From a virus (taxonomy: Duplodnaviria > Caudoviricetes), in IMG/VR virus record IMGVR_UViG_3300028361_000502, positions 1 through 53,099 of that record: a stretch of DNA of 53,099 nucleotides; one strand, 5' to 3'. The notes under the pieces are model-generated. The model did no database searches and was not told where the DNA came from. It was given only the letters and a program-made list of their open reading frames with translations. How positions within the stretch are numbered: the first letter of the stretch is position 1; each line of letters starts with the position of its first letter. Made by a program: the position numbers and the translations under genes. This document shows positions 8,121 through 41,810 of this stretch, one piece after another.

Positions 8121-8792
8121 TTATTGATTAGTTTTTTGTTGTTGCTGATACTTAACGTTACAGTCTTTGTATTTTTCTATTAAAATATCAGCCACAGTGT
8201 CACTACACACAGTTTCATAATGAGTGTGTGGAACTTCAACATGCGCCATGTCCGATCTGCTTTTCATACTTTCAATAGTAACAACACCATCGTTGGGCCC
8301 ACCGTGATATGGTACTTGACCAGTTGTGCTTACAACCTGTGTCCAAGGCACTGTTAATTTTATTTCCTGTGCTAGGCGTATAGGATCTGCGTTGCGTCCA
8401 ATATCTCTAAACAGCGGATAGTTTGGCACAATATATTTGGCCCAATCTGCTGTGCTGCTGCCAGCGAACGGTGTGCTGATGCTTACGCCGCCTAGTACTC
8501 TAATGTACTTGGTAAGGTGCAGAGCATACAGCCCGCCTAGACTGTGTCCTATAACAAAGTGTGGACCACGCCCTTGCACTTCTTCAGTGATCATATCTAA
8601 ATTATCACTGAAGCGATTCATACTGCTGTAGTTTACAAATATTTCTTTTGAAAAGTTTGTTTGACTTCTAAGATATTTAAAACTTAAATCAGTTTGATTG
8701 GCACCGTGTATCCAGATAACATTAACATTATCTGTTTCTTGTCCGTTGTACTCTGTGTCTTTGTTGAATATATTTTTAAAATAATTTATCAT
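8121..8792 (-). CDS. Alpha/beta hydrolase (lipase/esterase-like)
   Basis: IHG oxyanion motif, GHSLGG nucleophile elbow, STPFAGS, NDGVV, His; ATGA-coupled to the cyclase. Confidence 0.85.
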   Translation of the reverse strand: MINYFKNIFNKDTEYNGQETDNVNVIWIHGANQTDLSFKYLRSQTNFSKEIFVNYSSMNRFSDNLDMITEEVQGRGPHFVIGHSLGGLYALHLTKYIRVLGGVSISTPFAGSSTADWAKYIVPNYPLFRDIGRNADPIRLAQEIKLTVPWTQVVSTTGQVPYHGGPNDGVVTIESMKSRSDMAHVEVPHTHYETVCSDTVADILIEKYKDCNVKYQQQQKTNQ

Positions 8793-10828
8793 TTGCTTGT
8801 GGCCACAAATACGCCTGACCAGTTGTCTGGCAGGTCTTGTGTGTTCATATACTCACAACGTTCTATCCACATATCATAATATAGATCCATCTTACCTTCA
8901 AACTGTCCTTTTAATCTACGACATTCTTCTACAGCTTCAAGAAAACGTTTCTGTCTGTACAAGCCGTGCATAACAGCATGTCGTTTCCTGCTGCTATTAT
9001 AATGATTTTTAACATTGTCCAGCACTGTGTATATGCCCAGTCCAACACTCTTGCCTTTGACCTGTAGATCATCTATTTTGAGGAAGAACCAGTCTTGTGA
9101 GCATTGCTTGACTGTTGCTTCTCCGATCAGCAACAAGCATCCGTACTCTTTACATTTTGATTCGACTCTGGCTGCGGTGCTGACTGCGTCTCCCAGCACG
9201 TCGTAGCTGTGTCTTTTGGTTGATCCCATTTCCCCCAAATAGCCCAATCCAGTATTAATTCCAGCGCCCATCCCGACTGGCGGTCTTCCTTGAGGTATGA
9301 TAACCGTTTCATTAAATCTCTCCACAGCTCGTAGCATTTTTAGCCCTGTTGCTACGGCTGTGTCAGGGTGGTTTGCATCGTCTATAGGTGCGTTGTGAAT
9401 GTGCATACTAGCATCGCCAATATACTTGATAATCATACCATCAGCATCAAGCACAGGCTCTGTGATAGCATCCATATAGCCATTCATTATTTTAGTAAGT
9501 CCTTGTACGTCATCACCAAAGCTTTCACCCAATGGTGTAAATCCACGCAGGTCTGAGAATACAATGCTGACTTCTCTCTTGGTACCTTTTTTAATAAGAT
9601 CTGGATTGGTCTGTAACAGTTTAACCACAGTTGGGCTTGCGTATCCTTCAAACTGTTTCTTAATTGCCTGCTTCTGCAAGAATTCATCTACAAACTTGAT
9701 CACATATCTAATCACACCTACCAACAGTAGAAATGCTGCTGGAGTGAATCCGTCTACCAACCAGTTGTATTCTGTAAACACCCATATGCTGTAACCAATA
9801 CTCCCGCCCACGGACAACACAAAGAAGGCTATGCCCACGTATGTCCAACGAGCGAGAGCGATTAACAATATGCCAGCGAATATAAACGCTGCCAGTTCAG
9901 CACTGCTTGCCCACGCAGGGCGCTGTATGTTGGTCTCATTAAACACTGTGCCCAGCATAGCCGCTTGTAGTTCATGTGGGTACACGCCGCCTGCTGCTGT
10001 TGCTATAGGCTGGCTTAGTCCTGCTGCTGTGGGTGTAACAAACACAATACCGCCAGCAAAGTCTGTGGGTAAATCCGCAGCACTTACACTGATGCTTTTC
10101 TGACTCCAGTCAATCCATACACGGCCCAGTTCATCTGTGGGTATAACACCAAACTGTGGAATACGCAGTCTGTCAACACCCAGTGGGCTCAGTTTGATTT
10201 GAAAGCTAGGGTCGCCTGCCAATACTCTCAGCACTTCCATAGTCACGTTTGGATACAGTGTGTCTCCGCTGTAGAACACAAGCGGCACACGACGAGTAAC
10301 ACCATCTATTTCAGGAAAGGTGTTAACTATTCCACTGCCCACTGCATTTTGTTCAACCCAAGGCACGTTGGCTATAATACCAGGAACCTCTGGTATCAAA
10401 TACATATAGTCGCTGTTGATAATACTAGCACCAGGATTGATGGGTTCATTTCTGCCCTGCTCTGCGCCCAGCATGTTGACTATAACGGGATATTGCTGCA
10501 TAGCTTGTGCCAGTATTTCATCTTCGCCGGCTCTGTCAGACTCTGCCATAAACACCATGAACACTACTAGCCCAGCGCCTCTGTCATATATATCCTCTAT
10601 GAGGCTAGCATAATCACCTCTGGGCCAGGGCCATTGACCCTGTGCCTCTAAGCTAGCTTCGTCTATGTTCACAGTGTAAATGTTGTTGTTTACTGGCTCT
10701 TGATTAATTATCAATGTATCAAAATAACGCAGTTTCAAACTTTCTAAAAAGTTTGGATTTGCGTTCATCACATAGGCTAAAACAGCCAAAACCAATATAC
10801 TCCACAGAGGCGATAACAACTTTTTCAT
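8789..10828 (-). CDS. CHASE2-domain class III adenylate cyclase
   Basis: N-terminal TM, CHASE2 (IDEASL..GQWPWPR, DGVTRRVPL), three TMs, FSDLRGFT, KYIGDA, GINTG, YDVLGDAVSTAARVES. Confidence 0.93.
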   Translation of the reverse strand: MKKLLSPLWSILVLAVLAYVMNANPNFLESLKLRYFDTLIINQEPVNNNIYTVNIDEASLEAQGQWPWPRGDYASLIEDIYDRGAGLVVFMVFMAESDRAGEDEILAQAMQQYPVIVNMLGAEQGRNEPINPGASIINSDYMYLIPEVPGIIANVPWVEQNAVGSGIVNTFPEIDGVTRRVPLVFYSGDTLYPNVTMEVLRVLAGDPSFQIKLSPLGVDRLRIPQFGVIPTDELGRVWIDWSQKSISVSAADLPTDFAGGIVFVTPTAAGLSQPIATAAGGVYPHELQAAMLGTVFNETNIQRPAWASSAELAAFIFAGILLIALARWTYVGIAFFVLSVGGSIGYSIWVFTEYNWLVDGFTPAAFLLLVGVIRYVIKFVDEFLQKQAIKKQFEGYASPTVVKLLQTNPDLIKKGTKREVSIVFSDLRGFTPLGESFGDDVQGLTKIMNGYMDAITEPVLDADGMIIKYIGDASMHIHNAPIDDANHPDTAVATGLKMLRAVERFNETVIIPQGRPPVGMGAGINTGLGYLGEMGSTKRHSYDVLGDAVSTAARVESKCKEYGCLLLIGEATVKQCSQDWFFLKIDDLQVKGKSVGLGIYTVLDNVKNHYNSSRKRHAVMHGLYRQKRFLEAVEECRRLKGQFEGKMDLYYDMWIERCEYMNTQDLPDNWSGVFVATSK

Positions 10829-10842
10829 TCAGTATTTATTCA

Positions 10843-10869
10843 AAAATATAGGGCCAAGGGCCCTATATT
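10843..10869 (-). terminator. Intrinsic terminator after the curli operon
   Basis: AATATAGGGC-ccttg-GCCCTATATT hairpin followed by a T run. Confidence 0.75.
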
Positions 10870-10887
10870 GAAATGGTACAATGATGA

Positions 10888-12033
10888 TTACTGTTGGTCA
10901 ACAGTTAGGTTACAGGTTCCAGTAGTACAAACACCGTTTACCACTGTGTTGTCACTTAGGTCATGTGGTAGACTGTACAGTTGGTTCGTGTCGCCGCTCT
11001 GTGTTAGGCTAAAGTTCCAGTTGCCGCCTGAGTTGGTCAATTCAACTGTTGCTGCGTGATTGCCCAAGCCTTCTTGTAGCACTGTGACTGTGGCATTGTC
11101 GCCTAAACTTATAAGATCCAAGTAGTGTTCGCCTGATCCTTGTTGTGTGATTGTGTATGTGCCAAAACTACCATCGATGTCTAAGAACGCTTGCTTTTCG
11201 CTGTCACCCTGCTGTAAGAATGTAAGAGTGTTTGAATCGCCTACTATGTTGATGTCAGCAAAGTTTCTGTCAGTGTTGGTACCGCTCTGTGTGATGTCAG
11301 TTATGTTTGAATTACCCTGTAAGTACATTAACAAATAGTTACCATTGCTTAGTTGTGTGATGTCAACATCGTTGCTGTCGCCTATGATGGTCAAGTCAAT
11401 GTTGTTGCCTGTGGTTATGGCATTTGCGGCGTCTACCTGTGCCTGTTGTACACTGGTGATAGCACTTCTAAACACTGGTGTTGGTGCAGGAGCAGGTGCT
11501 GGCGCTGATGCAGTTTCGCCTGCTGCTAGAGGAGTTGTTGAATCAGGGACCCAAGTGCTCATAGTAGCGTTTGATGGATTTTCTTCTTCAACTGTAAATG
11601 AAGCACTATCACCTATGCTGTAGCCTTGAGCGGTTGTGATAAGTGTTCCCCAAAACCCGTCGCCCAAGTAGAATATAGCGCCGTCTGCTAGAGCTCGAAA
11701 TGTACCTGTGTTGTGGATTACTTCAGCAACTGTTCCGTCACTGTTGTATAGTGCCATACCATAAGTACCTGGATTGGTTGTTGAATCAAAAAACGCAAAG
11801 TATTGACTTGCGCTGTTGATATTTGCATAGTCTGTTGAGGTCATTCTAGATGAACTTGGTACACTTCTGTACAGATAGCTGTAGCCGCTTGTATTAAGTG
11901 TTCCGCCGCTTATACCCCATTGTACATCAAATATCTGTGCTGTACTAAATTTACCTGTTGTGATATCAGCCCATGCTGCTGAGGAAAATGTTAGTACAAA
12001 AAATACTGTTATTATTCTTATTAAATTTTTCAT
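10888..12033 (-). CDS. Secreted curlin-repeat protein with an extra N-terminal domain
   Basis: Signal peptide MKNLIR...AAWA; APAPAPAP linker; C-terminal repeats of the type I.GDSN...I.Q.G; start moved to 12033 (ATGA overlap). Confidence 0.8.
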   Translation of the reverse strand: MKNLIRIITVFFVLTFSSAAWADITTGKFSTAQIFDVQWGISGGTLNTSGYSYLYRSVPSSSRMTSTDYANINSASQYFAFFDSTTNPGTYGMALYNSDGTVAEVIHNTGTFRALADGAIFYLGDGFWGTLITTAQGYSIGDSASFTVEEENPSNATMSTWVPDSTTPLAAGETASAPAPAPAPTPVFRSAITSVQQAQVDAANAITTGNNIDLTIIGDSNDVDITQLSNGNYLLMYLQGNSNITDITQSGTNTDRNFADINIVGDSNTLTFLQQGDSEKQAFLDIDGSFGTYTITQQGSGEHYLDLISLGDNATVTVLQEGLGNHAATVELTNSGGNWNFSLTQSGDTNQLYSLPHDLSDNTVVNGVCTTGTCNLTVDQQ

Positions 12034-13124
12034 TGTGTTTGTACCACCTTTATGTTTACGTTTGTGCCACCGTCTTGTATTTGTATAGTTGCGGCATATT
12101 CGTCTTGTATGAGACTGTAGGTCCCGTGTGTGTCTGCGCTGGTTGTGATCACACTTATATGAGGCTGTCTGTCGCTTTCTATATAGATGTAACTTTCGTT
12201 TGCTGCCCATTGTATCCAAGGATATTTGTTTATACCTGGTAGAATAGCATTTTCGTCTTCAGACAATTCATCTTCGTCTAGGCCTGTGCTGAGGTTCAAC
12301 AGGTTATCCAAGTAATCATTGTTCAGTCTGTTTATATTAAGTTCTGAAAAATTCAATAGATCCTCGTCAAGTAGGTTTGCACTGAGTTGTTCGTATTCCA
12401 ATAAGTCGAAATCCAATGCTGTTGTCTGTTCTTCTTCCTCTTCTTCAGTGCCAAAGCCATTGACAAACTCTGAAGGAGGAACAATGATTAGATTGTTGTT
12501 GATATCGTTTGGACCTAACAGTAGACGCTTGGGGTCACTTGGCATCATAGCCAAACTGCTTACCATAGTGCCTTGATATGCTTCTGTAAGCAGCACTGAT
12601 CCTGCTGCGTTGCTCACTGTGATAGCGCCAACTGGACATTCATCTTCGTCGAATGTAGCGTCAGGACAGCTGGGCAATAGAATCACTAGACTGCGACCCA
12701 GTTCATCCACAGTCATACTAAAGTCTGTGCCTCTAACTGTGATGCTGGCAGTGGGTGTAGTAATGCTTACACGATCTCTGCTGTTCTTTGCTATTCTGCC
12801 TGATGCCATCTGTACAGTGCCAAGTGCCACACGCATACTCACACTGCCAGTGCCGGTGTTGGCGTCATACACAAAGTCGTCAATCACCAATTCACTCTGT
12901 TCAGTAATTCGCACTTTTGAATCGTCTTCGAATGTGATTTCTAGATTGGTTCTAGCAGTGATAAGTTTGTCCAGCATTTCCACACCAAAGCCTGTTTGTT
13001 CGAAAACAAGTTCTTCTTGACTGCGCACAGCGCCAGCAGGATTTCCATCAAACTCTGTGATGCTGCCTACTTCAGCAAGACCTATGCAGGGCGTTAATAT
13101 CATTATACCAATCCAACGCCACAT
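12030..13124 (-). CDS. FecR-domain periplasmic protein
   Basis: Signal peptide; D.L.T...LEITFEDDSKVRITEQSELVID, ITTPTASITVRGTDF FecR motifs; acidic C-terminal region. Confidence 0.88.
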   Translation of the reverse strand: MWRWIGIMILTPCIGLAEVGSITEFDGNPAGAVRSQEELVFEQTGFGVEMLDKLITARTNLEITFEDDSKVRITEQSELVIDDFVYDANTGTGSVSMRVALGTVQMASGRIAKNSRDRVSITTPTASITVRGTDFSMTVDELGRSLVILLPSCPDATFDEDECPVGAITVSNAAGSVLLTEAYQGTMVSSLAMMPSDPKRLLLGPNDINNNLIIVPPSEFVNGFGTEEEEEEQTTALDFDLLEYEQLSANLLDEDLLNFSELNINRLNNDYLDNLLNLSTGLDEDELSEDENAILPGINKYPWIQWAANESYIYIESDRQPHISVITTSADTHGTYSLIQDEYAATIQIQDGGTNVNIKVVQTQ

Positions 13125-18858: not shown

Positions 18859-19533
18859 TTATCTACCTATTGTTGTTTTTTCATATACACTATTATGTGT
18901 CTGAGTACAACGCACAAAAGTAGTACACTTTGATAACTGCTTGAGCTTAGAAGCCCCAGCATAGGTGCAGGTTGATCTGATGCCGCCAAGGATATCCTGT
19001 ACTGTATCAGCTACACTACCTCGGTAAGGTACCAAGACCGTCCTGCCTTCTGACGAACGATAGTTTTTCAATCCGCCAAAATGCTTGTCGTTTGCACTTT
19101 CACTGCTCATACCGTAGAATTGTACAAACTGTTTTGCTTCTACTAATTCTTCGCCGTTGTCATAGTGTATTTCGCCAGTCTTAAATGCTCTGTTGATAAC
19201 TTCGCCGCCGCCTTCATCGTGTCCAGCCAGCATACCACCCAGCATCACAAAGTCAGCACCCGCAGCAAATGCTTTGGCTACATCACCAGGAGTAGTACAT
19301 CCCCCGTCAGCAATGATATGACCACCAAGGCCGTGAGCAGCATCGGCACATTCGATAACTGCGGAAAGTTGCGGATATCCAACCCCGGTCTGCAATCTCG
19401 TCGTGCATACGCTATTATGTACCACTACACCCTCGATATTGTATGAATGATCTTCTTCGACTTCAAGATCATATGTGTATCCATCATATGGTTCAATTTC
19501 GAGTATATCTATTTCAACTAATTCAAATTTCAT
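18859..19533 (-). CDS. guaC: GMP reductase C-terminal part with split-intein C-half (residues 1-40)
   Basis: [20 protein letters not shown] followed by extein SVCTTR...IIADGG...FYGMSS...YRSSEG. Confidence 0.92.
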
Positions 19534-20481
19534 CTAAAATACTCCAGTCATTTTCTTTAATTTGTGATTCCCATATAACGAGATATCTATATCCGTTATC
19601 TTCTGCTTTAGAAGTAAATAATCCTTTGTTAAATCTTTTGCTTCGACCCATTCTGCATATTGATGAATATTATCATCTGTTACTGTTTCTCGATGTTTTT
19701 TATGTAAAACATAAAACTCGTGATTAGGAGTTGCTTTAATACCATTAATATTAACTATTGATTTTTTATCGTCAAATTTAAATGTATTAGTAACAGTTTT
19801 ATAAGATCCAGTGTGAGTTAAAACTTTTTCACCTTGTTTAATATCTTCGATATTCTTTAAACATTTATCAGTCTTAACTTTTTGCCCAGGAGCAAAACAT
19901 CCAGGTCCAATGCCAACTTTAACAATATCTGCTCCAGCAAGAATAAGTTCCTCCGTCATTTCACCTGTGACCACATTGCCTGCTATAATAACAAGATGTG
20001 GGAAACGTTTGCGTACTTCACGTACATGTGTTGTAAAGTGTTCTGAATATCCATTTGCAATGTCAATGCAAACATATTTTAGATTGTCTTCACACTTAGC
20101 ATACACGGCGCACAGCTTTTCAAAATCTGCTGTGCTGGTGCCTATGCTCATAGCCACATAGTCTGTGCGATTGAGTCCGTCACCATAATAGAACTCGATC
20201 AGTTCTTCCGCAGTGTAGGTTTTGACAAGGCAAGTAAAGATGCCTTGTGCGCCCAATGCATCTGCCATAGCAAATGTGCCAACACCGTCCATGTTAGCAG
20301 CCATGATAGGAATGCCTCGATAGTGTGGATCCTCTGTACAGTTGTCGGGGAAGTCTGGCACATAGTTTCTAAATATAAAACTACGTTCCAAGTCAACTTC
20401 TGAACGACTCTTAAGTGTGCTGCGCTTTGGGCGGATCAGCACATCCTTATAGTCTAGTCGTACTTCGTTGTCGATGCGCAT
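19534..20481 (-). CDS. guaC: GMP reductase N-terminal part with split-intein N-half (from Cys at 19899)
   Basis: DVLIRPKRSTLKSRS, AANMD, DIANGYSE, KVGIGPG, then CFAPGQKV...ATPNHEF (intein blocks A and B). Confidence 0.92.
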   Translation of the reverse strand: MRIDNEVRLDYKDVLIRPKRSTLKSRSEVDLERSFIFRNYVPDFPDNCTEDPHYRGIPIMAANMDGVGTFAMADALGAQGIFTCLVKTYTAEELIEFYYGDGLNRTDYVAMSIGTSTADFEKLCAVYAKCEDNLKYVCIDIANGYSEHFTTHVREVRKRFPHLVIIAGNVVTGEMTEELILAGADIVKVGIGPGCFAPGQKVKTDKCLKNIEDIKQGEKVLTHTGSYKTVTNTFKFDDKKSIVNINGIKATPNHEFYVLHKKHRETVTDDNIHQYAEWVEAKDLTKDYLLLKQKITDIDISLYGNHKLKKMTGVF

Positions 20482-31299: not shown

Positions 31300-32259
31300 T
31301 CAACCTCTACCTACCTGCTGAAGTGCAGTCACTGCCCATGGAAACTGTGGCAGGCTGGTTCTACTGCCGTTTGGTCCCCATGCTCTAGCACCTTCAACAT
31401 CTATATGAGTAAAGGTGTTGTACAGTCCTATACCGCCTATACCCTGTCGCACAGCCTCTTGTATGAACTGCGATCGCTGTGCTTGTGTAAAACTGCTTTG
31501 TACAATATCTAAAGCGTTGCCTCTTATGTGAGCACTGCTTTTAACGCCGCCTACTCTTTGGTTGTATTCCGGGCTACGATAGGCGCTGGTCACAGTGAGT
31601 TGAATGTTCATAGCCTGCGCAACTGCTATTGCTTTTTCTGCAAGTTGTGAATTGACTCTACTGTCTGTATGGGGAAGGAATACTAGCCATTCGCCGCCTT
31701 CTGCAGGCGGCCCTGCGCCTGGACCTTCTTGTGGTTCTCCGCCAGCCGCTGCTTGACCTGAGGGCAATGCGCCTGACTCACCTGTGACAGGACTTATTCC
31801 GCCTATACCGCCATCACCATATTCAAATGGGTCATTTCTCGTAGACGAGCCGCCCGCGGCTGCTTCATCTGCTGCGCCTTGAATTACCGCAGCGGCTTGT
31901 TCGTCGCTGACAAAAGGCATAGGAGCACCTACAAAGATATTACCTGCTATGCTTTGAACATTGGCAACATCTCCGGCCCAGACAGTGGATTGGTTTTGAA
32001 CAATTGTTTTGGCACCGCATATTCTTAAATCGTTGTTTCTATGAACTGGATTTCCATAAACAAATACAGATGCTGAACCTTCTGCTGAAGCAGGATTACA
32101 ATGCGGGGCTGCTGGACACAGTGCATCAGGAAAAGCAGGATCGCTGTATTCGATTACATTATTACCTTCAATGTATACTGTACGAGGGTTTTGTGGAATT
32201 AAGGCGCCGCCAGCATGTGTGTTAGGATCGTTTTTAACTGCCCATAACTCTTCAGACAT
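31300..32259 (-). CDS. PAAR-like spike-tip domain fused to a peptidase M15 (Zn D-Ala-D-Ala) domain
   Basis: N-terminal D.NTH.GG...TVYIEG...H....EGSASVFVYG.PVHR..D...CG; C-terminal TSAYRS..YN.RVGG...SAH..GNALDI...HID. Confidence 0.8.
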   Translation of the reverse strand: MSEELWAVKNDPNTHAGGALIPQNPRTVYIEGNNVIEYSDPAFPDALCPAAPHCNPASAEGSASVFVYGNPVHRNNDLRICGAKTIVQNQSTVWAGDVANVQSIAGNIFVGAPMPFVSDEQAAAVIQGAADEAAAGGSSTRNDPFEYGDGGIGGISPVTGESGALPSGQAAAGGEPQEGPGAGPPAEGGEWLVFLPHTDSRVNSQLAEKAIAVAQAMNIQLTVTSAYRSPEYNQRVGGVKSSAHIRGNALDIVQSSFTQAQRSQFIQEAVRQGIGGIGLYNTFTHIDVEGARAWGPNGSRTSLPQFPWAVTALQQVGRG

Positions 32260-32825: not shown

Positions 32826-33113
32826 TTAGACTAATATTCCTGTTGTGCTGCTAACATACTGTTTTGCCATTTCTGAATCAGTCTTGGCAACAAAAAGTGT
32901 AGCACTTTTATTTATACTGATTTTAGCGTCAGGATTTACAGTGAACGCTAGGGGTCCTAGACCAATGCCTTGAGCTGTGGCCATAATAGCCATTGGCTTT
33001 TGAACTGTGATGGATGCTGTAGATTCTTCTACCATTCGTGCTACAATTTCTTCGCCTGCTGTGGTTTTGATAGTGACTGTGTCGCCTGCTCTGTATGGTG
33101 TTTCGATAATCAT
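32826..33113 (-). CDS. Hypothetical phage protein (small beta-barrel, Sm-like pattern)
   Basis: GDTVTIKTTAGEEIVAR; ATGA-coupled to glutaredoxin. Confidence 0.7.
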   Translation of the reverse strand: MIIETPYRAGDTVTIKTTAGEEIVARMVEESTASITVQKPMAIMATAQGIGLGPLAFTVNPDAKISINKSATLFVAKTDSEMAKQYVSSTTGILV

Positions 33114-33361
33114 AATGTGTGTCCTGTTCCTGTATAACCTGTTTCTTCGATATATTTTGCTAGTTCTGTATAGCCGCCCACTTTGAACCCGTTTACTACA
33201 ATCTGAGGTACTGTCTTGGCTAGGGGAAATGTTTCTAAAAGCTGTTCACGTGTGTAGTCCACGTCCAGTGTTTTGTATTCGTAGACATAGCCCCGTGAGT
33301 CACATAGTTCTTTGGCTGCTTTACAATAGCCGCAGCCTGGCTTTCCGTATATTAGTATCAT
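33110..33361 (-). CDS. Glutaredoxin
   Basis: CGYC, TVPQI, VGGYTEL. Confidence 0.93.
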   Translation of the reverse strand: MILIYGKPGCGYCKAAKELCDSRGYVYEYKTLDVDYTREQLLETFPLAKTVPQIVVNGFKVGGYTELAKYIEETGYTGTGHTL

Positions 33362-34491
33362 AGACTGAATCTTTTTTGAATTATTTCTAATTTCCAGCCC
33401 GTTGTTTTTCCTTTTTTAGGAATAGGCCAGTTTTTTTGTATTTGCATTTTTAGTGTACTCCAACTTAGATTGTTTTTCTTACAAAATTCTACTGCTTCGC
33501 CGCCGCATAAAATATGTTCAACGCTTTGAGGTGATGTTAATTTATATGTGTAACTGTTTTTGTTACCTTTGCCAACTCGTAATTTTGCCTTGGCTCCTAT
33601 TAAGTCCTTTGTACTTTGCTTCTGTGTTTTGCCGTACATAGGGTTTCCAGAACCAGTATTTAATTTACTAAACTTCTTGCGTGTTTCGTCGCTGTGACGT
33701 TTAGGCCCATAGCCTCCACGTTCTTTCTGCAGGCGCGATCGCAATTCTCGTTGTTGCTGTGCTTTTTCAATACCATAAATTTCTTCGTATGTTTTGCCTC
33801 TGTGATTAGGAGGACGTGCATCTATACAGATATTAGATAATATTCCGTCTTTTTCATATCCCTTTCTGTCATAACGCTTAATCAACTCTGATTCTATATT
33901 ATACGCTAAATCTTCATCAATGATATTTTCAGCAATATACTCAATTAATGGTTCATTACCAGATGCACGTATGCTAGCAATCTTATTTTCTTTATAAACA
34001 TTCCTAGTTTCAGGAACGTCCCATAAGTGTGTTTTGGCTCGTCTACCTTTGCCTTTTCCGATATAAAAGGGTTGACTGTTTCTTGGGTCTACTAATTGAT
34101 ATACATAATACACGCTATTTTTCTCCTGCTGTATATATTTAGCAAGAGACTGAGAATAACAGTTAGGTATTGAATAATCCTCGGTTTGATTAGAACTAGC
34201 AGCAAAGATAATGTGTTCTCTGTGATCTTTATATGGGGTTATGTCTACTAGTTTGTCGTCTTTCCATATACTGTGCCGTATGGCTTGTATAACGCCAAAC
34301 CCTTTTAAAAAATAATAGCCAATTACTTTCTTTCCGCCATAGATAGTGGTATGTGTTTTAACATTATTATGACAGTTGTTGTAATCGTATGCCGAGTGTG
34401 CGTTAACAACTACAGCGCCAATCCAGTTGCAATCAAGAGACTTTGCCATAGAACGCATGTCATCTTCAACTGCAACTGGATTGTTCCACAT
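33358..34491 (-). CDS. GIY-YIG homing endonuclease with NUMOD-type repeats and an extra N-terminal domain
   Basis: YYVYQLVDPR..PFYIGKG..RR..H; GKTYEEIYG, HSDETRKK, NPMYGK; internal AGGAG-GTG start at 34113. Confidence 0.8.
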   Translation of the reverse strand: MWNNPVAVEDDMRSMAKSLDCNWIGAVVVNAHSAYDYNNCHNNVKTHTTIYGGKKVIGYYFLKGFGVIQAIRHSIWKDDKLVDITPYKDHREHIIFAASSNQTEDYSIPNCYSQSLAKYIQQEKNSVYYVYQLVDPRNSQPFYIGKGKGRRAKTHLWDVPETRNVYKENKIASIRASGNEPLIEYIAENIIDEDLAYNIESELIKRYDRKGYEKDGILSNICIDARPPNHRGKTYEEIYGIEKAQQQRELRSRLQKERGGYGPKRHSDETRKKFSKLNTGSGNPMYGKTQKQSTKDLIGAKAKLRVGKGNKNSYTYKLTSPQSVEHILCGGEAVEFCKKNNLSWSTLKMQIQKNWPIPKKGKTTGWKLEIIQKRFSL

Positions 34492-35621
34492 TAGAGGCTG
34501 AATCCTTTGAATGTGTCACTGCTAACGTCCTGTTTAGTGCCGCCAGAAACGTAAGAACTTATCTGTGTTTGCTGAGGTGCCACTTGTACTTCGCTTCCGC
34601 TAATCCATTTCTGTGTCCAAGGCAGCGGATTGTTCTTGATAGTGTAGGGGCTTTTAAGATTTACATTGGTCATGCGTCGTGTACAGATCCATTCAATGTA
34701 TTCACTCAACAGTTGTGTGTTTAGGCCGATCATGCTTCCGTCTTTGAACAAATATTCTGCCCAAGCTTTTTCTTGATCTACTGCGTCGATAAACATTTGA
34801 ACGCAGGCTGCTTCTGTTTCAGATGCAATCTTTTCAAAGTCTGGATCATCCTTCTTCAGTATCTTGAGCAGCATCTGAGTTGAAGCTAGGTGCAGGTTCT
34901 CATCACGAGCAATCAACTTGATGATCTTAGCATTGCCTTCCATCTTCTTAAGTTCAGCAAACGCCCAACTACATGCAAAGCTTACATAGAAGCGAACACC
35001 TTCGAGAATGTTCACACTCATCAATGCTAGCCACAACAGTTTCTTTAATTCATAAAGATCAACCACCACAGTGTTACCGTTCACAGTGTGTACGCCTTCA
35101 CCTAGTAGATTGTAGTAACTGGCCAGTTCAATTAGGTCGTCGTAGTACTTTGAAATGTCTCCTGCACAGTCTACAATTTCTGTAATGTTCATCATCTCGT
35201 CAAAGATCTTGCTGGGGTTGGAATAGATGTTGCGGATGATGTGTGTATAGCTTCTGCTGTGGATGGTCTCAGAGAACGTCCAAGTGATGATCCAGTTCTC
35301 TAGTTCAGGTAGGCTTACAATAGTACCAAAGCTTTCTGCTGGTGCTCGACCCTGTACTGAGTCCAACAGTATTTGACGCTTGAGGTTTGAAGTAAAGATA
35401 TGTCGCTCATGGTCTGTGAGAGCCTTAAAGTCTTTGGCATCTTGATAGATGTCTATTTCCTCAGGACGCCAAAAGAATCCCAACTGCTTGTCTGTTAGTT
35501 GATCAAACTGTTTGTACTTCAGTGTATCATAACGCTGAATTGTTGGGCCACCACTTGGATCAAGGAACGCCTTTACTGTAGTATGGTCTACTGTGTTGGT
35601 GGTGTCAAATACACTGCTCAT
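34491..35621 (-). CDS. nrdB: Class Ia ribonucleotide reductase beta subunit
   Basis: FFWRPEE, QILLDSVQGR, ETIHSRSY, LEGVRFYVSF, RDENLH; promoter TTGACA-N17-TAAAAT at 35650-35678. Confidence 0.97.
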   Translation of the reverse strand: MSSVFDTTNTVDHTTVKAFLDPSGGPTIQRYDTLKYKQFDQLTDKQLGFFWRPEEIDIYQDAKDFKALTDHERHIFTSNLKRQILLDSVQGRAPAESFGTIVSLPELENWIITWTFSETIHSRSYTHIIRNIYSNPSKIFDEMMNITEIVDCAGDISKYYDDLIELASYYNLLGEGVHTVNGNTVVVDLYELKKLLWLALMSVNILEGVRFYVSFACSWAFAELKKMEGNAKIIKLIARDENLHLASTQMLLKILKKDDPDFEKIASETEAACVQMFIDAVDQEKAWAEYLFKDGSMIGLNTQLLSEYIEWICTRRMTNVNLKSPYTIKNNPLPWTQKWISGSEVQVAPQQTQISSYVSGGTKQDVSSDTFKGFSL

Positions 35622-35681
35622 TATAATAATCCTTTGATTTTAATTGTTAATTTTAACACACTGCTCACAGTGTGTCAACAT

Positions 35682-36233
35682 TTATATAGTGCAACTTTCA
35701 CATTCGCCGCCTGCATCCGCTGGGACAGCGGGCAATTCCTGTACGCTGTTATCAGATATCATTTTGTCTGTGTCCAACTCGCCTTGGCCATCGTTTGTTT
35801 GGAAATAATAAAGCTGTTTTCCGCCTAGCTTGTAGAACAACAGTAGGTGCTGTAGCATAGTGCTGAGAGGTATTTTCTCATCTTCGTAGTACTGTGGATT
35901 GTAACTGGTGTTTACACTGATGCCTTGATCAATGTATTTCTGCAACACTGCCACGATCTTTAAATAGCCTTCTGGGCTACGCTGATCCCACAGTAGATCA
36001 TATTTGTTCTTGAGCTTTTTAAACTCTGGCACTACCTGCTTGAGTACGCCATGCTTGCTCTGCTTGATTGAGATTAGACTGCGCGGTGGTTCAATACCGT
36101 TGGTAGCATTTGCAATTTGCGCACTAGTGTTATGACTAATGCATCCATTTGACAAGGTATAAGTTTCGTTGTCAGTTGAAACATCCCAAGTGTGTTCTGT
36201 TCCTGCGTCTCTTGTAATACGTTTAATTTTCAT
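35682..36233 (-). CDS. nrdA: NrdA fragment 3: split-intein C-half (35 aa) plus NrdA C-terminus
   Basis: TWDVSTDNETYTLSNGCISHN then TSAQIANATNGIEPPR...KQLYY...CESC; start moved to ATG 36233. Confidence 0.92.
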   Translation of the reverse strand: MKIKRITRDAGTEHTWDVSTDNETYTLSNGCISHNTSAQIANATNGIEPPRSLISIKQSKHGVLKQVVPEFKKLKNKYDLLWDQRSPEGYLKIVAVLQKYIDQGISVNTSYNPQYYEDEKIPLSTMLQHLLLFYKLGGKQLYYFQTNDGQGELDTDKMISDNSVQELPAVPADAGGECESCTI

Positions 36234-36487
36234 TTTAATAATTCCTCTTTTGTAATTGAACATTTTCCTTGTTTTGACACGTTATCTTCCCAGGGAATAA
36301 ATTCTAAATTTTGCAAGCTTCCTAATAGCGCAGGATCAATTCCTTCAATAAATCCTCGAGATATTGAGAATTTATGATCTAGATGATAGGCGTTGTTGAT
36401 ACCTGCTCGGCCTCTTTTTTCATAATTCACTAATAAATTTAGGTCATGTTGATTAGTATATTCCCAGTCATACGGGTTTGCTTTCAT
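36230..36487 (-). CDS. Truncated HNH-type endonuclease remnant between the intein halves
   Basis: YHLDHKFSI...NLEFIPWEDNVSK; only 85 aa; AT-rich. Confidence 0.65.
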   Translation of the reverse strand: MKANPYDWEYTNQHDLNLLVNYEKRGRAGINNAYHLDHKFSISRGFIEGIDPALLGSLQNLEFIPWEDNVSKQGKCSITKEELLK

Positions 36488-36504
36488 ATTATCTCCTGTT
36501 AGCG

Positions 36505-37461
36505 TTAATGCTTATAATTAACGCTAACAATATCGTCATCTTCTAATAAATCTTTAACTTCGATCCATTCTTTTATGTTATTTCGTAATACAAGAAGTTT
36601 GTGATTATTAGTAAATTTATATACCGATCCGTCTTCTAATTCAATTTCTGTAACAGATTGAGGGCCATTATAATAACATTCATATGCTATACTATCTGAC
36701 AATTCAACTGGTTTAAGGAATGGAAATCTCTGACCTATCATGAATTTTTCGTGAACAGTGTTAATATCAATTTTTCCGTAATCTTGAATAACTTCGGCGA
36801 GCGTTACAACTGTTCCATCTTTTAGCCTCATTTCATTTGCCAAGCTTTGACATTCACTAGGCATCAGTGCCATCAGTGTTGAGTTGCGGATGCCAGTTGT
36901 CTTAAGCTGTTCACGCAGACCTTGCCAATCCATGCGTTCTTGATGTGGTACTAGTTCGTCCAGTGCTGACGCATAGGTTTGATTAGGTGTGATGCCTAGG
37001 CCGTACTTGGTTTCAGGTGTTCCAGGGCAAGCACCAAATTCTACTGCAAGATCAGCACTGGCTTTGATCAAATAGTAACTCCAAGCTTCTGCCCATTCGT
37101 CAATCAGTGCTAGCCCTTGTGCGTCAATGTTTTGATAGCTGAGACTGTTCTTGGCCATCCAGTAAGCAAAATTGATAATGCCAATGCCCAAAGGTCTACG
37201 CTTTTCTGTACTAAGTTGGGCAGCTAGGATAGGATAGTTTTGATAGCTCAACAGTGCATCTAGTCCACGTACTGCTAAACGACATACACGCTCAAAGTCT
37301 GCTGGTGTACGAATGTTGCCCCAATTTATTGCTGACAAGGTACAAAGGCTGATAGCGGCGCCGTCGTAATCTTCTACCATTTCGTCTACATAGTAATATT
37401 CTTCGTCTTCGTGTATATCAATCTTGTCCTCAACAATTTCATATAGCCAATCATCTTTCAT
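36505..37461 (-). CDS. nrdA: NrdA fragment 2: acidic head, NrdA core, split-intein N-half (from Cys at 36852)
   Basis: ISLCTLSAINWG, RRPLGIGIINFAY, GIRNSTLMALMPSE then CQSLAN...FTNNHKL...WIEVKDL. Confidence 0.92.
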   Translation of the reverse strand: MKDDWLYEIVEDKIDIHEDEEYYYVDEMVEDYDGAAISLCTLSAINWGNIRTPADFERVCRLAVRGLDALLSYQNYPILAAQLSTEKRRPLGIGIINFAYWMAKNSLSYQNIDAQGLALIDEWAEAWSYYLIKASADLAVEFGACPGTPETKYGLGITPNQTYASALDELVPHQERMDWQGLREQLKTTGIRNSTLMALMPSECQSLANEMRLKDGTVVTLAEVIQDYGKIDINTVHEKFMIGQRFPFLKPVELSDSIAYECYYNGPQSVTEIELEDGSVYKFTNNHKLLVLRNNIKEWIEVKDLLEDDDIVSVNYKH

Positions 37462-38219
37462 TTTTTATATCCTTTTAATTTTCTAAGTTTGAACATTGAC
37501 AGTCCTGTTGCGTTTGATGCTTCTGTCATTGAACCGTATTCCACATTATCGACTACAATAGACTTTGAGAACGAATTATCGGAACCGTACATTGCTTTGC
37601 CGGGCTTGCCCTTGCTTTTCCATTCTTTACAATCATATTCTACATTTCGATTATTCGTTATTTTTTTGCACTTATAGCCTTTGTAATGCTGTTTATTTCC
37701 TCTTGCAACAGCACTCATTGCTGAAGGATTTAGATTATTTTCTTTACAATACTCTAGCATATTTTCTCGAACTATTGTTGTACCGTCAGGAGTTGTGATT
37801 TCCCACGTGTCAATTTTTAATTTATGTCTGTTATGATCGCCCCATAACTGCTTTCCTTTGTGAGGACTAGGTTTTCCTTTTTTTGCTTTAGATATCCTAT
37901 CATAATATATTTTAGCTAGCTCTGGATTATCGTGATGGCTCCAGCCTTTTCCAGAATAGTTATGCAGATTATAATACTCGCTACTATTTGCAGCATCAAC
38001 ATTGCATAAAATTTCTTGTTCTTTTGAAACTGCTTCCTCTCCAGTCATATTAGAATGTAAAATTTTTCTAGTATAATTATGAGGATTTTTATCATAAATC
38101 TCGTTAAAATAATTACTAGATGAAATATAGCCGTCACACATTGTTCCGTAATGCGACCCGATATATTTCATCTTGTCTATTTTTGATTCCCACATATAAA
38201 TAAAACCTTGCTTTTCCAT
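37458..38219 (-). CDS. GIY-YIG (Seg-like) homing endonuclease splitting nrdA
   Basis: GFIYMW...KYIGSH, YISSS, YYNL; C-terminal NUMOD/HTH repeats. Confidence 0.85.
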   Translation of the reverse strand: MEKQGFIYMWESKIDKMKYIGSHYGTMCDGYISSSNYFNEIYDKNPHNYTRKILHSNMTGEEAVSKEQEILCNVDAANSSEYYNLHNYSGKGWSHHDNPELAKIYYDRISKAKKGKPSPHKGKQLWGDHNRHKLKIDTWEITTPDGTTIVRENMLEYCKENNLNPSAMSAVARGNKQHYKGYKCKKITNNRNVEYDCKEWKSKGKPGKAMYGSDNSFSKSIVVDNVEYGSMTEASNATGLSMFKLRKLKGYKK

Positions 38220-38243
38220 AATATTATACCTTTCTGTATAATA

Positions 38244-39731
38244 TTATTTATCCTTATGTACTTTTTTGCCGTTAAGTTTTTCTTTATCAAGTCTAAGGAT
38301 ATTGCTAACTGATTTTTTATATTCTAAGTATTCCTGATACTTTTCTTTTGGTACACGAACTTTTCTCCTATGGGCTCCGTCGTTTAGATCGTTCAACGGC
38401 TTGGTAGGCAGGTCAATTTCTGCGCAAAGATTTGATTGTCTAATAGGAGCAATTGACGGAATAAAGCTGCCGTGACTGTTGGCATTGTCTACATTCTGTA
38501 GATAGATACGACCTGTGTTCTTGCGCTCTTCCATAAAGCTGCTGAACAAGTCAATAGCTTTAATAGTCTTTTTGCGCAGTTTGGTGTTGCGTTCAGCAGT
38601 TTCATACAGTTCACGGAACAGATCTTGATCCGCAAAGAAAGCATCATACAGCCCAGGAACATCTGCAGGGGAAAACAGTGTGATGTCAGCGCCCTGTATC
38701 AGTCTTTCATAAAACAGTTTGTTAAACTGTACGCCATAATCCATATGACGCACTCGATTTTCTTCTGTGCCTTTGTTGTTCTTCAGCACCAACATATCTT
38801 CTATCTCATAGTGCCATATAGGGTAGTAGATAGTGGCTGCACCGCCTCTTACTCCGCCTTGACTACAGCTTTTAACAGCTGATTGAAAGTGCTTGTAGAA
38901 AGGAATAATACCTGTATGGTAAGCATCACCTTTGCGTATAGGTGATCCGATAGCACGGATGTTGCCGCCGCCTATGCCAATGCCTGCTTTCTGACTAACA
39001 TATTTGACAATACTAGCGGCTGTGGCATTGATGCTGTCTAGGCTATCACCTGTTTCAATTAAAACACAACTTGAGAACTGACGCTGTGGTGTACGAACAC
39101 CTGCCATAACCGGTGTAGGCAAGCTGATGTCATGCTGGCTGACAGCATCGTAGTAGTCCTTGACCCAGGTTAGCCTTGACTCTTTGGGATAGTTGTGAAA
39201 CAGTGTGGCAGCGATCAGTATATAGCATACCTGCGGAGTTTCAAAGATTTCACCACTGACCCTGTTCTGTACTAGATACTTGCCGCGCAGTTGCTCCATG
39301 GCCACATAGGTTAAACTTTCATCACGCTCATGTTTTACAAAACTGTTGATGCGATCCCACTCTTCGTCTGTGTAGTATGAGATCAATTCTGGATCATAAA
39401 ATCCTAGATCAGTATTGCGTTTAACTAGGTCTTTGACAGCACAAGGTTCAAACTGTCCGTATACTTCTTTGCGCAGGGCATAGTTGATCATTCTCCCGCC
39501 TACATATTGATAGTTGGGATTTTCTTCTGAGATAAGATCCGCCGCAGCTTTGATCAGTGTTTCTTGAATCTCTTTGGTAGTAATACCGTTGTAAAACTGT
39601 ATCTGACTCTTGATTTCCACTTCGCTTGGGCTAACTCCAGTTATGTCATCACAGGCATAAAAAACAACCTTGTGTAATTTTTCAATATCTAGAGGCTCTT
39701 TGCGCCCTGCTCGCTTGGTGACTTGAATCAT
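38244..39731 (-). CDS. nrdA: NrdA fragment 1: ATP cone through the catalytic NLCAE, plus a basic tail
   Basis: MIQVTKR ATP cone, TPVMAGVRT, FSSCVLIE, GGVRGG, RQSNLCAEI; start moved to 39731. Confidence 0.95.
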   Translation of the reverse strand: MIQVTKRAGRKEPLDIEKLHKVVFYACDDITGVSPSEVEIKSQIQFYNGITTKEIQETLIKAAADLISEENPNYQYVGGRMINYALRKEVYGQFEPCAVKDLVKRNTDLGFYDPELISYYTDEEWDRINSFVKHERDESLTYVAMEQLRGKYLVQNRVSGEIFETPQVCYILIAATLFHNYPKESRLTWVKDYYDAVSQHDISLPTPVMAGVRTPQRQFSSCVLIETGDSLDSINATAASIVKYVSQKAGIGIGGGNIRAIGSPIRKGDAYHTGIIPFYKHFQSAVKSCSQGGVRGGAATIYYPIWHYEIEDMLVLKNNKGTEENRVRHMDYGVQFNKLFYERLIQGADITLFSPADVPGLYDAFFADQDLFRELYETAERNTKLRKKTIKAIDLFSSFMEERKNTGRIYLQNVDNANSHGSFIPSIAPIRQSNLCAEIDLPTKPLNDLNDGAHRRKVRVPKEKYQEYLEYKKSVSNILRLDKEKLNGKKVHKDK

Positions 39732-39765
39732 TTTTATTTCCTTGTTCTGTTGTGTGATCTGATAT

Positions 39766-40191
39766 TTATTGGAGTGATGGCATGAGGTACTGGTATTCAG
39801 AAACGGTGGTGGTGGGAACTTGGCTTCTGTGAACATGCGTATCTCCGGCTGGGCTGACAACCCTATCATCAATGAACAGTAAGTATTCTACAGATGATCT
39901 TTGTTTGTCGTGTGTAATATGTATCTCGAATCTGGCAGGAGTAAAACGGTCAGTTAATTGTAAGGTGTAGCAGATCGCAAGGATCTTCACGAACACACAA
40001 TAATTATTTTCCTTGATTATTTCCCACGGTGCAGGCCAGGTACTTTGAGTGTAAGGGTCAGCAGCAATGCTGACCTCTGGGGCACGATTGAATAGGTCAA
40101 TTGTGTCCTGTATAGGGTCTTCAGCCGTCTCTAGTGCAGATCTGAAAGATCTCCAGAGTGCTAGACGTTGCTCATATGTTTTATCGAACAT
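39766..40191 (-). CDS. Hypothetical phage protein
   Basis: 141 aa; WPAPWEII..NNYC motif. Confidence 0.7.
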   Translation of the reverse strand: MFDKTYEQRLALWRSFRSALETAEDPIQDTIDLFNRAPEVSIAADPYTQSTWPAPWEIIKENNYCVFVKILAICYTLQLTDRFTPARFEIHITHDKQRSSVEYLLFIDDRVVSPAGDTHVHRSQVPTTTVSEYQYLMPSLQ

Positions 40192-40193
40192 TA

Positions 40194-41810
40194 TTATGTT
40201 TTATATTTCACTGTGTAAACTAATTCAGCTTGGTCGCTGCTCGTAAAGTTTAACACCATGATGGACACTGTGTCAACCACTGTGTCGCCATTTTCGTCAG
40301 TTATCTGTGCGAAAAATCTTAGATTTTCTTGGAACAACACATCGCCAGTGTAGTCATATTCATCTGTAATATTGTATGTGTTGTTGTTAGGATTGACTAC
40401 TAGATTTAGTGTACCGTTTCTCGCAGCGTCTACTTGACTACTGCGATAGAAGTAATCAATCACATAGCCTTTGGCTGAGCCAAGTGCTGGAAGCTTGAAC
40501 AGTCTAGTAGCTTCAGAATATTGTCCCAGTGATATTCTGTGTGAACGGTTTATCTGTGTTATCTGTGAACCTTGTACTTCTGTGGTATAAGGAACGTTGA
40601 TAATAAAATTAGCATCATAGCCCAACAGTTCTGCTCGTTGGAAATAATCGTTTGTGCTTACGCCGCCAGGGCCATTGAATTGAATAATAGGATATCTGTT
40701 GTTGCTGGGACTGCCGCCATCGTTGCCAACATTGTAATACTTGTTGCTGTCACTGACATTGTCAACACCAATGTAAACAAAGATAGCATGACTCGCAACA
40801 TCATCAAAAGTGCTGTTTGATATTTTGTTTTGATAAGGACCCGAAAGCTGACCGCTGACGCCTAATACTGTGGTTTCGCCAAACACTATGCCTGCCCACA
40901 GTGTTTTGAATTCACAGTTGTTCCACGTGTTGTTGTTGATGTCTTGATTGCTGATCACAGCATAAGCATAACCAGATACTGATACATTTTCAAATGTGTT
41001 GTTTTGTGAAGTAACTGCTGTGCTTAGTCCTGCAAGCAGTACAGCAACATTGGACCTAGCAACTGTGTTGCCAATTTGCCATGTGCCCACGATCTTTATA
41101 TTTGTAAAAGAACTGTCTTTACAGCTCTGTAATTCAAACGCTGGTGAGCTTTGTGTTTGTATTGTAAGATCTGATATTGAAATTTGTCTAGCTTGATTTA
41201 GTGTAGTGCTGACTGCATCGCTAGCATAGCTGCCTACTGTGCTGGTTTCATTCACAGTTCTAAAAGCCACATGATTGCCAGTTATAATAACAGTTCTGTC
41301 TATGCCAGCGCCGCGAATAGTTACAAACGGCGGAAGGAATACAGTGCTGCTAATTCTATATTCGCCTGGCTCAAATATCAATTCCACTCTGCTCAGTGCT
41401 TGACCTTTGTTGGCTGCGTTGAGGTACAGTTGATCAACAGCACGTTGAATAGCCACTGTCTGATCAAGTCCATCGCCTAGAGCACCAAATGCTCTTATGC
41501 TCACACGATCATCTAGTCTTTCCTGTAGTGTTCTCAGCACAGGTGTGTTTATTGTAGTACCAGTTTGAATATTGCCTGCGCCGCTCTTGTATGCGTAGGT
41601 ATCAGCAAATTGAAACAGATCGTCGTTTTCGCTTAACAGTTTGGTATTGCCTACTAGGGGAGCACCTTCTGACACTGCACCGTTACCGATGAACAGTTCC
41701 TGTGTGTCAATTGCCCATCCCAGTTCACCTGAAGCCAGTTGTGGTAGACCCGAGCCTGCTTGTTTTCTACCTCTACGAATCTGTATTCTTGAAATTGATA
41801 CGACAGCCAC
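40194..41810 (-). CDS. Virion structural protein with a pectate-lyase-like beta-helix (tail spike/fibre-like)
   Basis: IQIRRG...LASGELGWAIDTQELFIGNG head; FGALGDGLDQTVAIQRA, PGEYRIS; Asn-rich repeats. Confidence 0.75.
   Translation of the reverse strand: MAVVSISRIQIRRGRKQAGSGLPQLASGELGWAIDTQELFIGNGAVSEGAPLVGNTKLLSENDDLFQFADTYAYKSGAGNIQTGTTINTPVLRTLQERLDDRVSIRAFGALGDGLDQTVAIQRAVDQLYLNAANKGQALSRVELIFEPGEYRISSTVFLPPFVTIRGAGIDRTVIITGNHVAFRTVNETSTVGSYASDAVSTTLNQARQISISDLTIQTQSSPAFELQSCKDSSFTNIKIVGTWQIGNTVARSNVAVLLAGLSTAVTSQNNTFENVSVSGYAYAVISNQDINNNTWNNCEFKTLWAGIVFGETTVLGVSGQLSGPYQNKISNSTFDDVASHAIFVYIGVDNVSDSNKYYNVGNDGGSPSNNRYPIIQFNGPGGVSTNDYFQRAELLGYDANFIINVPYTTEVQGSQITQINRSHRISLGQYSEATRLFKLPALGSAKGYVIDYFYRSSQVDAARNGTLNLVVNPNNNTYNITDEYDYTGDVLFQENLRFFAQITDENGDTVVDTVSIMVLNFTSSDQAELVYTVKYKT

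Follow-up and report, generated by a model that had tools for sequence, protein, structure and literature searches.

The 53,099-base virus record IMGVR_UViG_3300028361_000502 of IMG/VR (the window, with an estimated completeness of 17%) carries on its minus strand nrdA, which encodes the class Ia ribonucleotide reductase (RNR) large subunit, distributed over three separate open reading frames (ORFs). It is likely that this is the nrdA gene of an uncultured lake jumbo phage, that it holds two cassettes at two sites, and that it still gives rise to an active enzyme. One of the cassettes is a homing endonuclease gene flanked by a basic and an acidic peptide extension, and the other is a predicted split intein.

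A complete NrdA in three open reading frames

Between positions 39731 and 35682 of the minus strand five ORFs follow one another, namely nrdA piece 1 (39731..38244), an ORF of 253 amino acids (aa), piece 2 (37461..36505), an ORF of 85 aa, and piece 3 (36233..35682), and nrdB, which encodes the small subunit (34491..35621, minus strand; PF00268, E 3.1e-46), lies directly 3' of nrdA. Piece 1 has 495 aa and runs from the ATG at 39731, with AGGA about 10 nt upstream, to the stop at 38244; its start, MIQVTKR, is shared by relatives, and its residues 3-452 align with residues 6-455 of Escherichia coli NrdA (E 4.8e-198). Piece 2 has 318 aa, of which residues 31-203 align with E. coli 454-623, the LCTL motif providing the equivalent of C462 (C40 of the piece). 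Piece 3 aligns with E. coli NrdA from residue 624 onward, beginning with its residue 46 (TSAQ; E 8.6e-38). Identity to the E. coli protein is 55-70% over the aligned stretches.

The native part of piece 1 (aa 1-451, 38379..39731) comprises the ATP cone (PF03477), the all-alpha domain (PF00317) and the start of the barrel, which is continued by the native parts of piece 2 (aa 33-203, 36853..37365) and of piece 3 (148 aa from TSAQ, with the stop, 35682..36128), and the 523 positions of the barrel profile PF02867 are tiled without loss across the three ORFs as 1-221, 214-397 and 390-523. The class Ia domain set, with ATP cone, all-alpha domain and the whole 10-stranded barrel, is complete over the pieces. 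In piece 1, with its SNLCAE motif, C222, N434, C436 and E438 are the equivalents of E. coli C225, N437, C439 and E441, while the radical-transfer pair of tyrosines (LYYFQ) and the C-terminal CESC are both located in piece 3. The roles of these four residues, of C462, of the tyrosine pair and of the C-terminal cysteine pair belong to established RNR biochemistry. No catalytic residue has been lost, and the three pieces are free of frameshifts.

An initial annotation had described the first fragment as ending shortly after NLCAE and the second as starting just before LCTL, and coordinates and motifs are as it described them. Its three ORFs were likewise found, with the correction that piece 3 most likely starts at 36233 and not at 36263, and it had overlooked the 85-aa ORF between the last two pieces (36487..36230), which is an endonuclease remnant. 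The active site is indeed encoded by three ORFs, as was claimed, but it would be built from two polypeptides, not three, after the predicted trans-splicing.

An endonuclease cassette with charged tails at the first break

The first break (break 1) lies in the loop between the equivalents of E. coli C439 and C462. Where the site is empty, as in the related loci L014, L018 and L020, ...LPTKPLNDLND continues through P(D/E)GE into ISLCTLSA.... In the window both flanks are kept: LNDLND is followed by a 44-residue tail at the end of piece 1 (GAHRRKVRVPKEKYQEYLEYKK..., aa 452-495, 38244..38378 with the stop), and DGAAISLCTL resumes after a 32-residue leader at the beginning of piece 2 (MKDDWLYEIVED...YYYVDEMVEDY, aa 1-32, 37366..37461). 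The tail is basic, with an isoelectric point (pI) of 10.1 and a net charge of +8.9, and the leader is acidic, with a pI of 4.05 and a charge of -13.4 over the 36 residues that precede ISLC. Both are absent from uninterrupted relatives; the tail is conserved among 12 tails, and 33 distinct related leaders were collected. The 9-nt sequence GACGGNGCN, which encodes Asp-Gly-Ala, is present at both ends of the cassette. As many as 295 of the 315 related loci screened are uninterrupted at this position, their sequence being exactly continuous, and the split is thus not a matter of chance.

Between tail and leader lies a free-standing homing endonuclease gene (253 aa, 37458..38219), whose product matches PHROG 314, 'homing endonuclease' (E 5.8e-18). 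The initial annotation had called it a GIY-YIG gene. This call rests on a GFIYMW...KYIGSH motif visible by eye in the N-terminal half together with the PHROG match, because the Pfam GIY-YIG matches are weak and both below their cut-offs (PF01541, E 0.062; PF19835, E 0.068). Residues 109-247 of the endonuclease are 33% identical to residues 99-229 of MobE from phage Aeh1 (E 3e-17), and the same C-terminal part matches endonuclease genes located beside nrdA in T4-like coliphages. The endonuclease stop overlaps the piece-2 start in the sequence ATGA. At the other end of the gene, a hairpin with a 12-bp stem (38218..38247) extends over the piece-1 stop and the endonuclease ribosome-binding region to the first bases of the endonuclease AUG; it has a folding energy of -10.2 kcal/mol (z -10.7), none of 200 shuffled sequences folds as well, and it recalls the translational control reported for mobE and for the endonucleases of fractured genes (PMC2677866).

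Tail and leader also carry a record of selection. In comparison with L012, the tail is identical at 35 of 44 residues, with a nonsynonymous divergence (dN) of 0.198, and the leader at 22 of 32 (dN 0.165), the native parts of nrdA giving dN values of 0.146-0.206, the lowest of which goes with a synonymous divergence (dS) of 2.66. The synonymous sites of tail and leader are saturated, which is why no dN/dS ratio is given for them, and their arginine codons switch between the AGR and CGN families. This pattern of substitution indicates that tail and leader are under purifying selection and evolve as constrained coding sequence.

A predicted split intein and a decayed endonuclease at the second break

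The second break (break 2) falls between E623 and T624 in E. coli numbering, where ...ALMPSE is followed by CQSL... in piece 2 and ...NGCISHN by TSAQ in piece 3. The putative intein N-half occupies aa 204-318 of piece 2 (36505..36852, with the stop) and the C-half precedes the native part of piece 3 (36129..36233). Together they present the canonical hallmarks of class 1 inteins: the first Cys (C204, CQSL), the block B motif TNNH, the terminal HN, and Thr at position +1. Their matches to the 155-position profile PF14890 (Intein_splicing) are complementary, covering 10-94 (E 9.2e-6) and 118-155 (E 0.12), and among solved structures the N-half is matched best by DnaE split inteins, over block B (E 0.02). 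PSE runs directly into TSAQ (from piece-2 residue 206 to piece-3 residue 46) in most of the loci compared, of which there were 80, with the intein exactly absent. By its motifs, break 2 is a canonical split intein for which trans-splicing is predicted, and the initial annotation had rightly placed a split intein between MPSE and TSAQ.

Since GAGGA is found 8 nt 5' of Met11 (36233), and since the corresponding ORF of L019 starts at the same Met, this is most likely where piece 3 begins. The C-half would then probably have 35 aa (MKIKRITRD...NGCISHN), and all 35 are identical in L011, L012, L014 and L016. The intein halves are nearly identical to those of L012 (113/114 and 45/45 residues) and the native parts less so (145/171 and 113/148), which indicates recent transfer.

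The 85-aa ORF between the halves (36230..36487) ends in a stop that overlaps the start of the C-half, again as ATGA, and just 5' of its AGGAG, at the end of piece 2, there is a hairpin with a 14-bp stem (36496..36530; -15.8 kcal/mol, z -5.0, with 0 of 200 shuffles as good). The 85-aa ORF corresponds approximately to residues 1-9 and 250-327 of an ORF of 327 aa that L011, L014 and L018 possess, with 77 of 78 residues identical, and this match to the two ends of the longer ORF points to an in-frame internal deletion in the endonuclease of the intein. The remnant matches phrog_5104 (function unknown, E 4.8e-17) and, weakly, phrog_1035 (endonuclease VII, E 0.0049), so that, with a motif seen by eye, it may be of HNH/EndoVII type. 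A variant of this region was observed in runs X3 and X6, where a contig of higher word depth than the window form skips 36383-36511 (129 bases) and has TCAT instead, so that piece 2 loses its end and the endonuclease remnant its start.

Distribution and mobility of the two insertions

Both inserts are mobile cassettes, and their sites are empty or filled among relatives. The leader-type break occurs in 8 of the 315 loci (the window, L011, L012, L013, L019, L092, L093 and L105), L016 is a frameshifted copy that also has break 1, and six of the 315 loci carry a split intein at the C439 site instead of break 1. The two combine freely, and the states observed are diverse: L092, L093 and L105 have break 1 only; L017 and L018 have break 2 only, with a full endonuclease; L019 has both breaks, with an intein that lacks an endonuclease; L014 and L015 have three split inteins and no break 1; and L012 and L013, whose nrdA is in four pieces, combine a contiguous mini-intein at 289/290, a split intein at the thiyl-radical Cys, break 1 without endonuclease, and the split intein between PSE and T. 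In the last two loci the tail and leader ORFs overlap by 11 nt, and the break-1 split thus persists without its endonuclease. The order of genes seen in the window, with both breaks, is also found in L011, L012, L013, L016 and L019, and at least five IMG/VR contigs carry both breaks.

Some of these loci have peculiarities of their own. In L012 (2503-6655) and L013 (a 251-kb contig) one nrdA piece has only 99 aa and consists of an intein C-half, 17 native residues and the tail. In L014 (955-7423) and L015 each of the three split inteins has its own free-standing endonuclease gene, and the first of them has an atypical, short N-half of 24 residues (CLDPDTYVEV... after ...AVKSC), and the same N-half recurs in run X14, where a loose end at 38865 shows it. 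Runs X3 and X6 hold variants with the residue-289 intein, whose loose ends lie at 38861-38873.

The identities of the individual segments disagree between relatives. Compared with L011 and L016, native piece 2 is 99% identical, the leader 62-68% and the endonuclease 79-81%; compared with L105, the leader is 84% and the native part 69% identical; and compared with L012, the intein halves are 99-100% and the native parts 76-85% identical. Each cassette therefore has a separate history.

The spread among proteins was assessed on the best 120 cluster representatives matching piece 2, out of 1066 proteins matching at E up to 1e-10. The acidic leader is present in 45 of these 120 best clusters, of which 33 reach the normal C-terminus and 12 end in an intein N-half as in the window, and two representatives are from NCBI, where their contigs measure 305 and 325 kb. 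The tail is common to nine proteins. A profile of 5 tails retrieved from 1.84 billion representatives only 3 proteins, all of them small NrdA pieces, tails on full-size pieces being hidden from this search because the library keeps one representative per 50% cluster. One cluster (P0131, of 847 aa, and P0124) contains a natural full-length NrdA with an in-frame loop insert of 85 residues that is made up of tail, GTQGTT linker and leader, and with no endonuclease, stop or intein. In P0133 (110 aa), one of the small NrdA pieces retrieved with the tail profile, the basic tail runs directly into the last 20 or so residues of the endonuclease (...LSMYKLRKLKEAK), which looks like endonuclease loss through an internal deletion. 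Searched as a single protein against IMG/VR, the endonuclease gave one locus only, and megablast against GenBank phages gave no match.

Proposed assembly and alternative explanations

According to the explanation that we favor, cassette 1 (about 1.0 kb, 38378..37366) lies in the loop that separates the thiyl-radical Cys from the Cys that is its redox partner, and is composed of a stop-terminated basic tail, a homing endonuclease gene under presumed hairpin control, and an acidic leader whose start overlaps the endonuclease stop, pieces 1 and 2 presumably being translated separately. Cassette 2 is the predicted split intein between E623 and T624 with its decayed endonuclease, the halves of which would dock and trans-splice pieces 2 and 3 into a chain comparable to NrdA-b of phage Aeh1. 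In that phage nrdA is arranged as nrdA-a/mobE/nrdA-b, the non-covalent assembly of NrdA-a and NrdA-b was shown biochemically, and the tails of the two proteins (pI 10.4 and 3.8) are essential for activity and required for the holoenzyme (Crona et al. 2011, PMC3045599). By analogy, piece 1 may associate non-covalently with the spliced pieces 2 and 3, aided by tail and leader, and the functional form of the large subunit would be (piece 1 / spliced piece 2+3)2 in association with NrdB2.

A broader proposal, which we put forward tentatively, is that tail, endonuclease and leader form a self-contained mobile cassette that brings its own matched basic and acidic assembly tags. Such a cassette would be harmless in a surface loop of an essential gene because the matched peptide pair holds the halves together; it may have spread among nrdA alleles of lake jumbo phages, with the nuclease domain swapped and the MobE-type DNA-binding domain kept, with loss of the endonuclease or re-fusion as possible outcomes, and side by side with a split intein, the two acting as orthogonal rejoining devices. 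If this is true, re-fusion that leaves an 85-residue insert could offer selfish elements a way of generating new modules inserted into proteins.

Structure prediction was applied to tail and leader. With family alignments, the complex predicted for residues 437-495 of piece 1, which include the tail, and residues 1-48 of piece 2, which include the leader, scored 0.18 against a mark of 0.32, which is evidence neither way. In an AlphaFold2 model of a partial natural fusion of 570 aa, the predicted local distance difference test score (pLDDT) is 83-85 for a strand and a helix of the tail and about 80 for one strand of the leader, while the model of the full-length natural fusion of 847 aa has a predicted template modelling score (pTM) of 0.81 and a pLDDT of 31-71 in the insert. 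Common to both models is the secondary-structure pattern only, a strand then a helix in the tail and a strand in the leader.

Several points weigh against an active enzyme assembled in this way. Given the pLDDT of 31-71, a folded module of tail and leader is not established; the low dN/dS of the native parts could partly predate the insertions; and neither of the two PF14890 matches at break 2 reaches the curated cut-off of 35.8 bits. An alignment suggests by eye that the tails are homologous to those of Aeh1, but shuffle tests gave no support to this and it was rejected as unsupported: the pairwise score was reached by 4671 of 5000 shuffles for the tail and 702 of 5000 for the leader, and the profile score by 849 and 295 of 2000, respectively. 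As no homology to the Aeh1 tails is detectable, the functional analogy is founded on the position, on the charge and on the endonuclease domain common to both, and the arrangement in the window is either a second origin or a very diverged relative. Moreover, the window is only 17% complete, so a second RNR elsewhere in the genome is possible, and the host's own RNR could make the phage nrdA dispensable.

The last two points lead to the view that the gene is an inactive relic, the phage relying on the host RNR or on another RNR gene outside the contig and the pieces serving as a refuge for selfish elements. Campylobacter phage nrdA genes appear to degenerate while propagating inteins (PMC3653736), and the endonuclease between the intein halves of the window is itself decaying. 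Such a relic is nevertheless unlikely: the catalytic residues are all kept without frameshifts, the native dN of 0.146 against L012 goes with the dS given above, the tail and leader, found only in the split state, are equally constrained, and the adjoining nrdB is intact. An intact nrdA elsewhere, which the initial annotation had named as a possible source of activity, was not found in the 251-kb relative (71% complete), where there is no RNR large-subunit match outside the fragmented locus.

Two further alternatives concern the nature of break 1. That the tail and leader are degenerate remnants of a split intein, acting now as a non-splicing clasp or ligating by unusual chemistry, is an origin of the kind raised for Aeh1 by Crona et al. 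(PMC3045599), and by eye the leader sequence LYEIVE resembles block F (VYDITV) of neighbouring inteins. This is rather improbable, as neither tail nor leader has an intein match in Pfam at E up to 10, the tail does not begin with Cys, Ser or Thr, there is no terminal Asn before a nucleophile at the break, and a profile-profile comparison of 33 leaders with 13 intein C-halves reached a probability of 0.1% (E 0.55) over 2 aligned columns only; an intein origin of the leader was rejected as unsupported on this comparison, and the initial annotation had been correct in seeing no intein motifs here. It is very unlikely that a group I intron carrying the endonuclease ORF is removed from the RNA to restore one frame, the condition under which the initial annotation would have given up its reading. 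Deletion of 37357-38375 would indeed be in frame, the 9-nt repeat flanks the cassette, and group I introns are frequent in phage RNR genes (PMC3653736), the nrdA of Klebsiella jumbo phage KP13-7 included. Rfam, however, gave no group I intron in 33000-41000 of the window at E up to 1, where a chance-level microRNA match was the only one, nor, at E up to 0.1, did RF00028 match L012, L093 or Aeh1 at that break, and the KP13-7 nrdA intron was recovered in the same scan as a positive control (RF00028, 43.3 bits, E 7e-8). The would-be intron ends are conserved as protein, with the saturated synonymous change and arginine codon-family switches described above, and every piece comes with a stop, a start and a Shine-Dalgarno sequence of its own.

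Least credible is a chimeric metagenomic assembly that joins pieces of different phage strains. The word depth of the intein region is about twice that of the sequence on either side, and the same runs contain several strain variants together; yet runs X3 and X6 yielded contigs (2036 and 2127 nt) that span piece 2, leader, endonuclease, tail and piece 1 with zero differences, and the same order recurs in the five loci listed above. Runs X10 and X14 have no cover over 37402-38325 and bear neither way. An nrdA with two cassettes that most likely still encodes an active enzyme thus remains the preferred explanation.

Other features of the window

Directly after nrdB, with a start that overlaps the nrdB stop, the minus strand carries a third endonuclease gene (33358-34491), composed of a 125-aa N-terminal part without assignment, a LEM-3-like GIY-YIG domain and an NUMOD3 motif, and a homolog is also found after nrdB in L011, L053, L057 and L058. 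A second fractured gene, of the IMPDH/GMP-reductase family, lies at 18859-20481 on the minus strand as two abutting ORFs (Pfam IMPDH 2-183 and 178-337) with a predicted split intein and no endonuclease gene between them; the N-half starts with CFAPGQ, the C-half ends in VVHN followed by S, and there are matches to Hint_2 and Intein_splicing. Additionally, the minus strand encodes a 679-aa protein that joins a CHASE2 sensor to an adenylate/guanylate cyclase domain and has a FecR-like protein close to it (8789-13124), and a 319-aa ORF in which a PAAR motif is fused to a peptidase M15 domain (31300-32259).

Comparison with known systems

Both devices are known singly, their pairing in one nrdA was not found described, and no new mechanism is involved. 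In a full-text literature search, whose coverage did not extend to the complete list of loci of Dassa et al. (2009), no paper was found that has both an endonuclease split with tails and a split intein in a single gene. The initial annotation, which knew of no description of this combination, is borne out as regards the publications searched; the arrangement itself is not unique to this contig, as seen from the 12 of 120 best clusters and the at least five IMG/VR contigs mentioned above.

The first break resembles the Aeh1 case in the gene, in the loop between C439 and C462, and in the point at which PF02867 is cut, about 221/222 in both. In either phage a free-standing endonuclease gene lies between the ORFs and overlaps the downstream one, the upstream tail is basic and the downstream leader acidic (PMC3045599), and the endonuclease described here has a C-terminal domain homologous to MobE. 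On the other hand, the nuclease half is GIY-YIG-like here and H-N-H in Aeh1 MobE, the tails of the window are longer, its downstream piece is cut again by the split intein, and its cassette is widespread, whereas Aeh1 is a single case. As late as 2023 the split RNR of Aeh1 was cited as such, 'in at least one instance' (PMC10448857). An Aeh1-type solution is thus present here in a different cassette and is common, with the leader in 45 of the 120 best clusters. The states seen, with and without endonuclease, re-fused, or with one to three inteins, form a comparative series on harmless insertion into essential genes, and tail and leader are a natural pair of short peptides and candidate tags for fragment assembly, to which the intein at E623/T624 adds a new split intein allele.

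The second break belongs with the fractured genes of Dassa et al. (PMC2677866), in which split inteins are combined with an endonuclease gene that is free-standing. The likeness extends to the split at the usual region of endonuclease insertion, the endonuclease ORF between the halves, the hairpin before its start, the overlap with the intein C-half, and the location in a phage gene of nucleotide metabolism. It differs in that the seven NrdA split inteins from the Global Ocean Sampling (GOS) data that are described in the text of that paper lie directly N-terminal to the thiyl-radical Cys, whereas that of the window lies between E623 and T624, and in that the 85-aa remnant, among the matches obtained, corresponds to neither of the two endonuclease types presented there. 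Several interruptions of one phage gene for the RNR large subunit, removed by differing mechanisms, are also known from nrdE of Bacillus phage SPbeta (an intron and an intein) and of Brochothrix phage A9 (three introns and an intein) (PMC3653736). In those genes, as that source describes them, RNA splicing is combined with protein splicing in cis, and there is no non-covalent split alongside a split intein.

Counterparts of the second break are found in the Klebsiella jumbo phages phiKp_21 (LC768485) and KP13-7 (OP617745) of the genus Alcyoneusvirus, which have a split intein at the same PSE/T site and an endonuclease ORF between the halves. The native parts of phiKp_21 and KP13-7 are 42-57% identical to those of the window, and these phages have no break-1 cassette. 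Both records annotate the nrdA pieces as hypothetical proteins or partial nrdA, the labels in KP13-7 being nrdA_1, nrdA_2 and hypothetical proteins. The KP13-7 locus (L006, 1818-7348 of this cultured jumbo phage) is interrupted by a group I intron that carries an HNH ORF (RF00028) and by two split inteins accompanied by endonuclease genes, the second of them at the C439 site, and here too the pieces of nrdA are rejoined in two ways, through the intron and through the split inteins.

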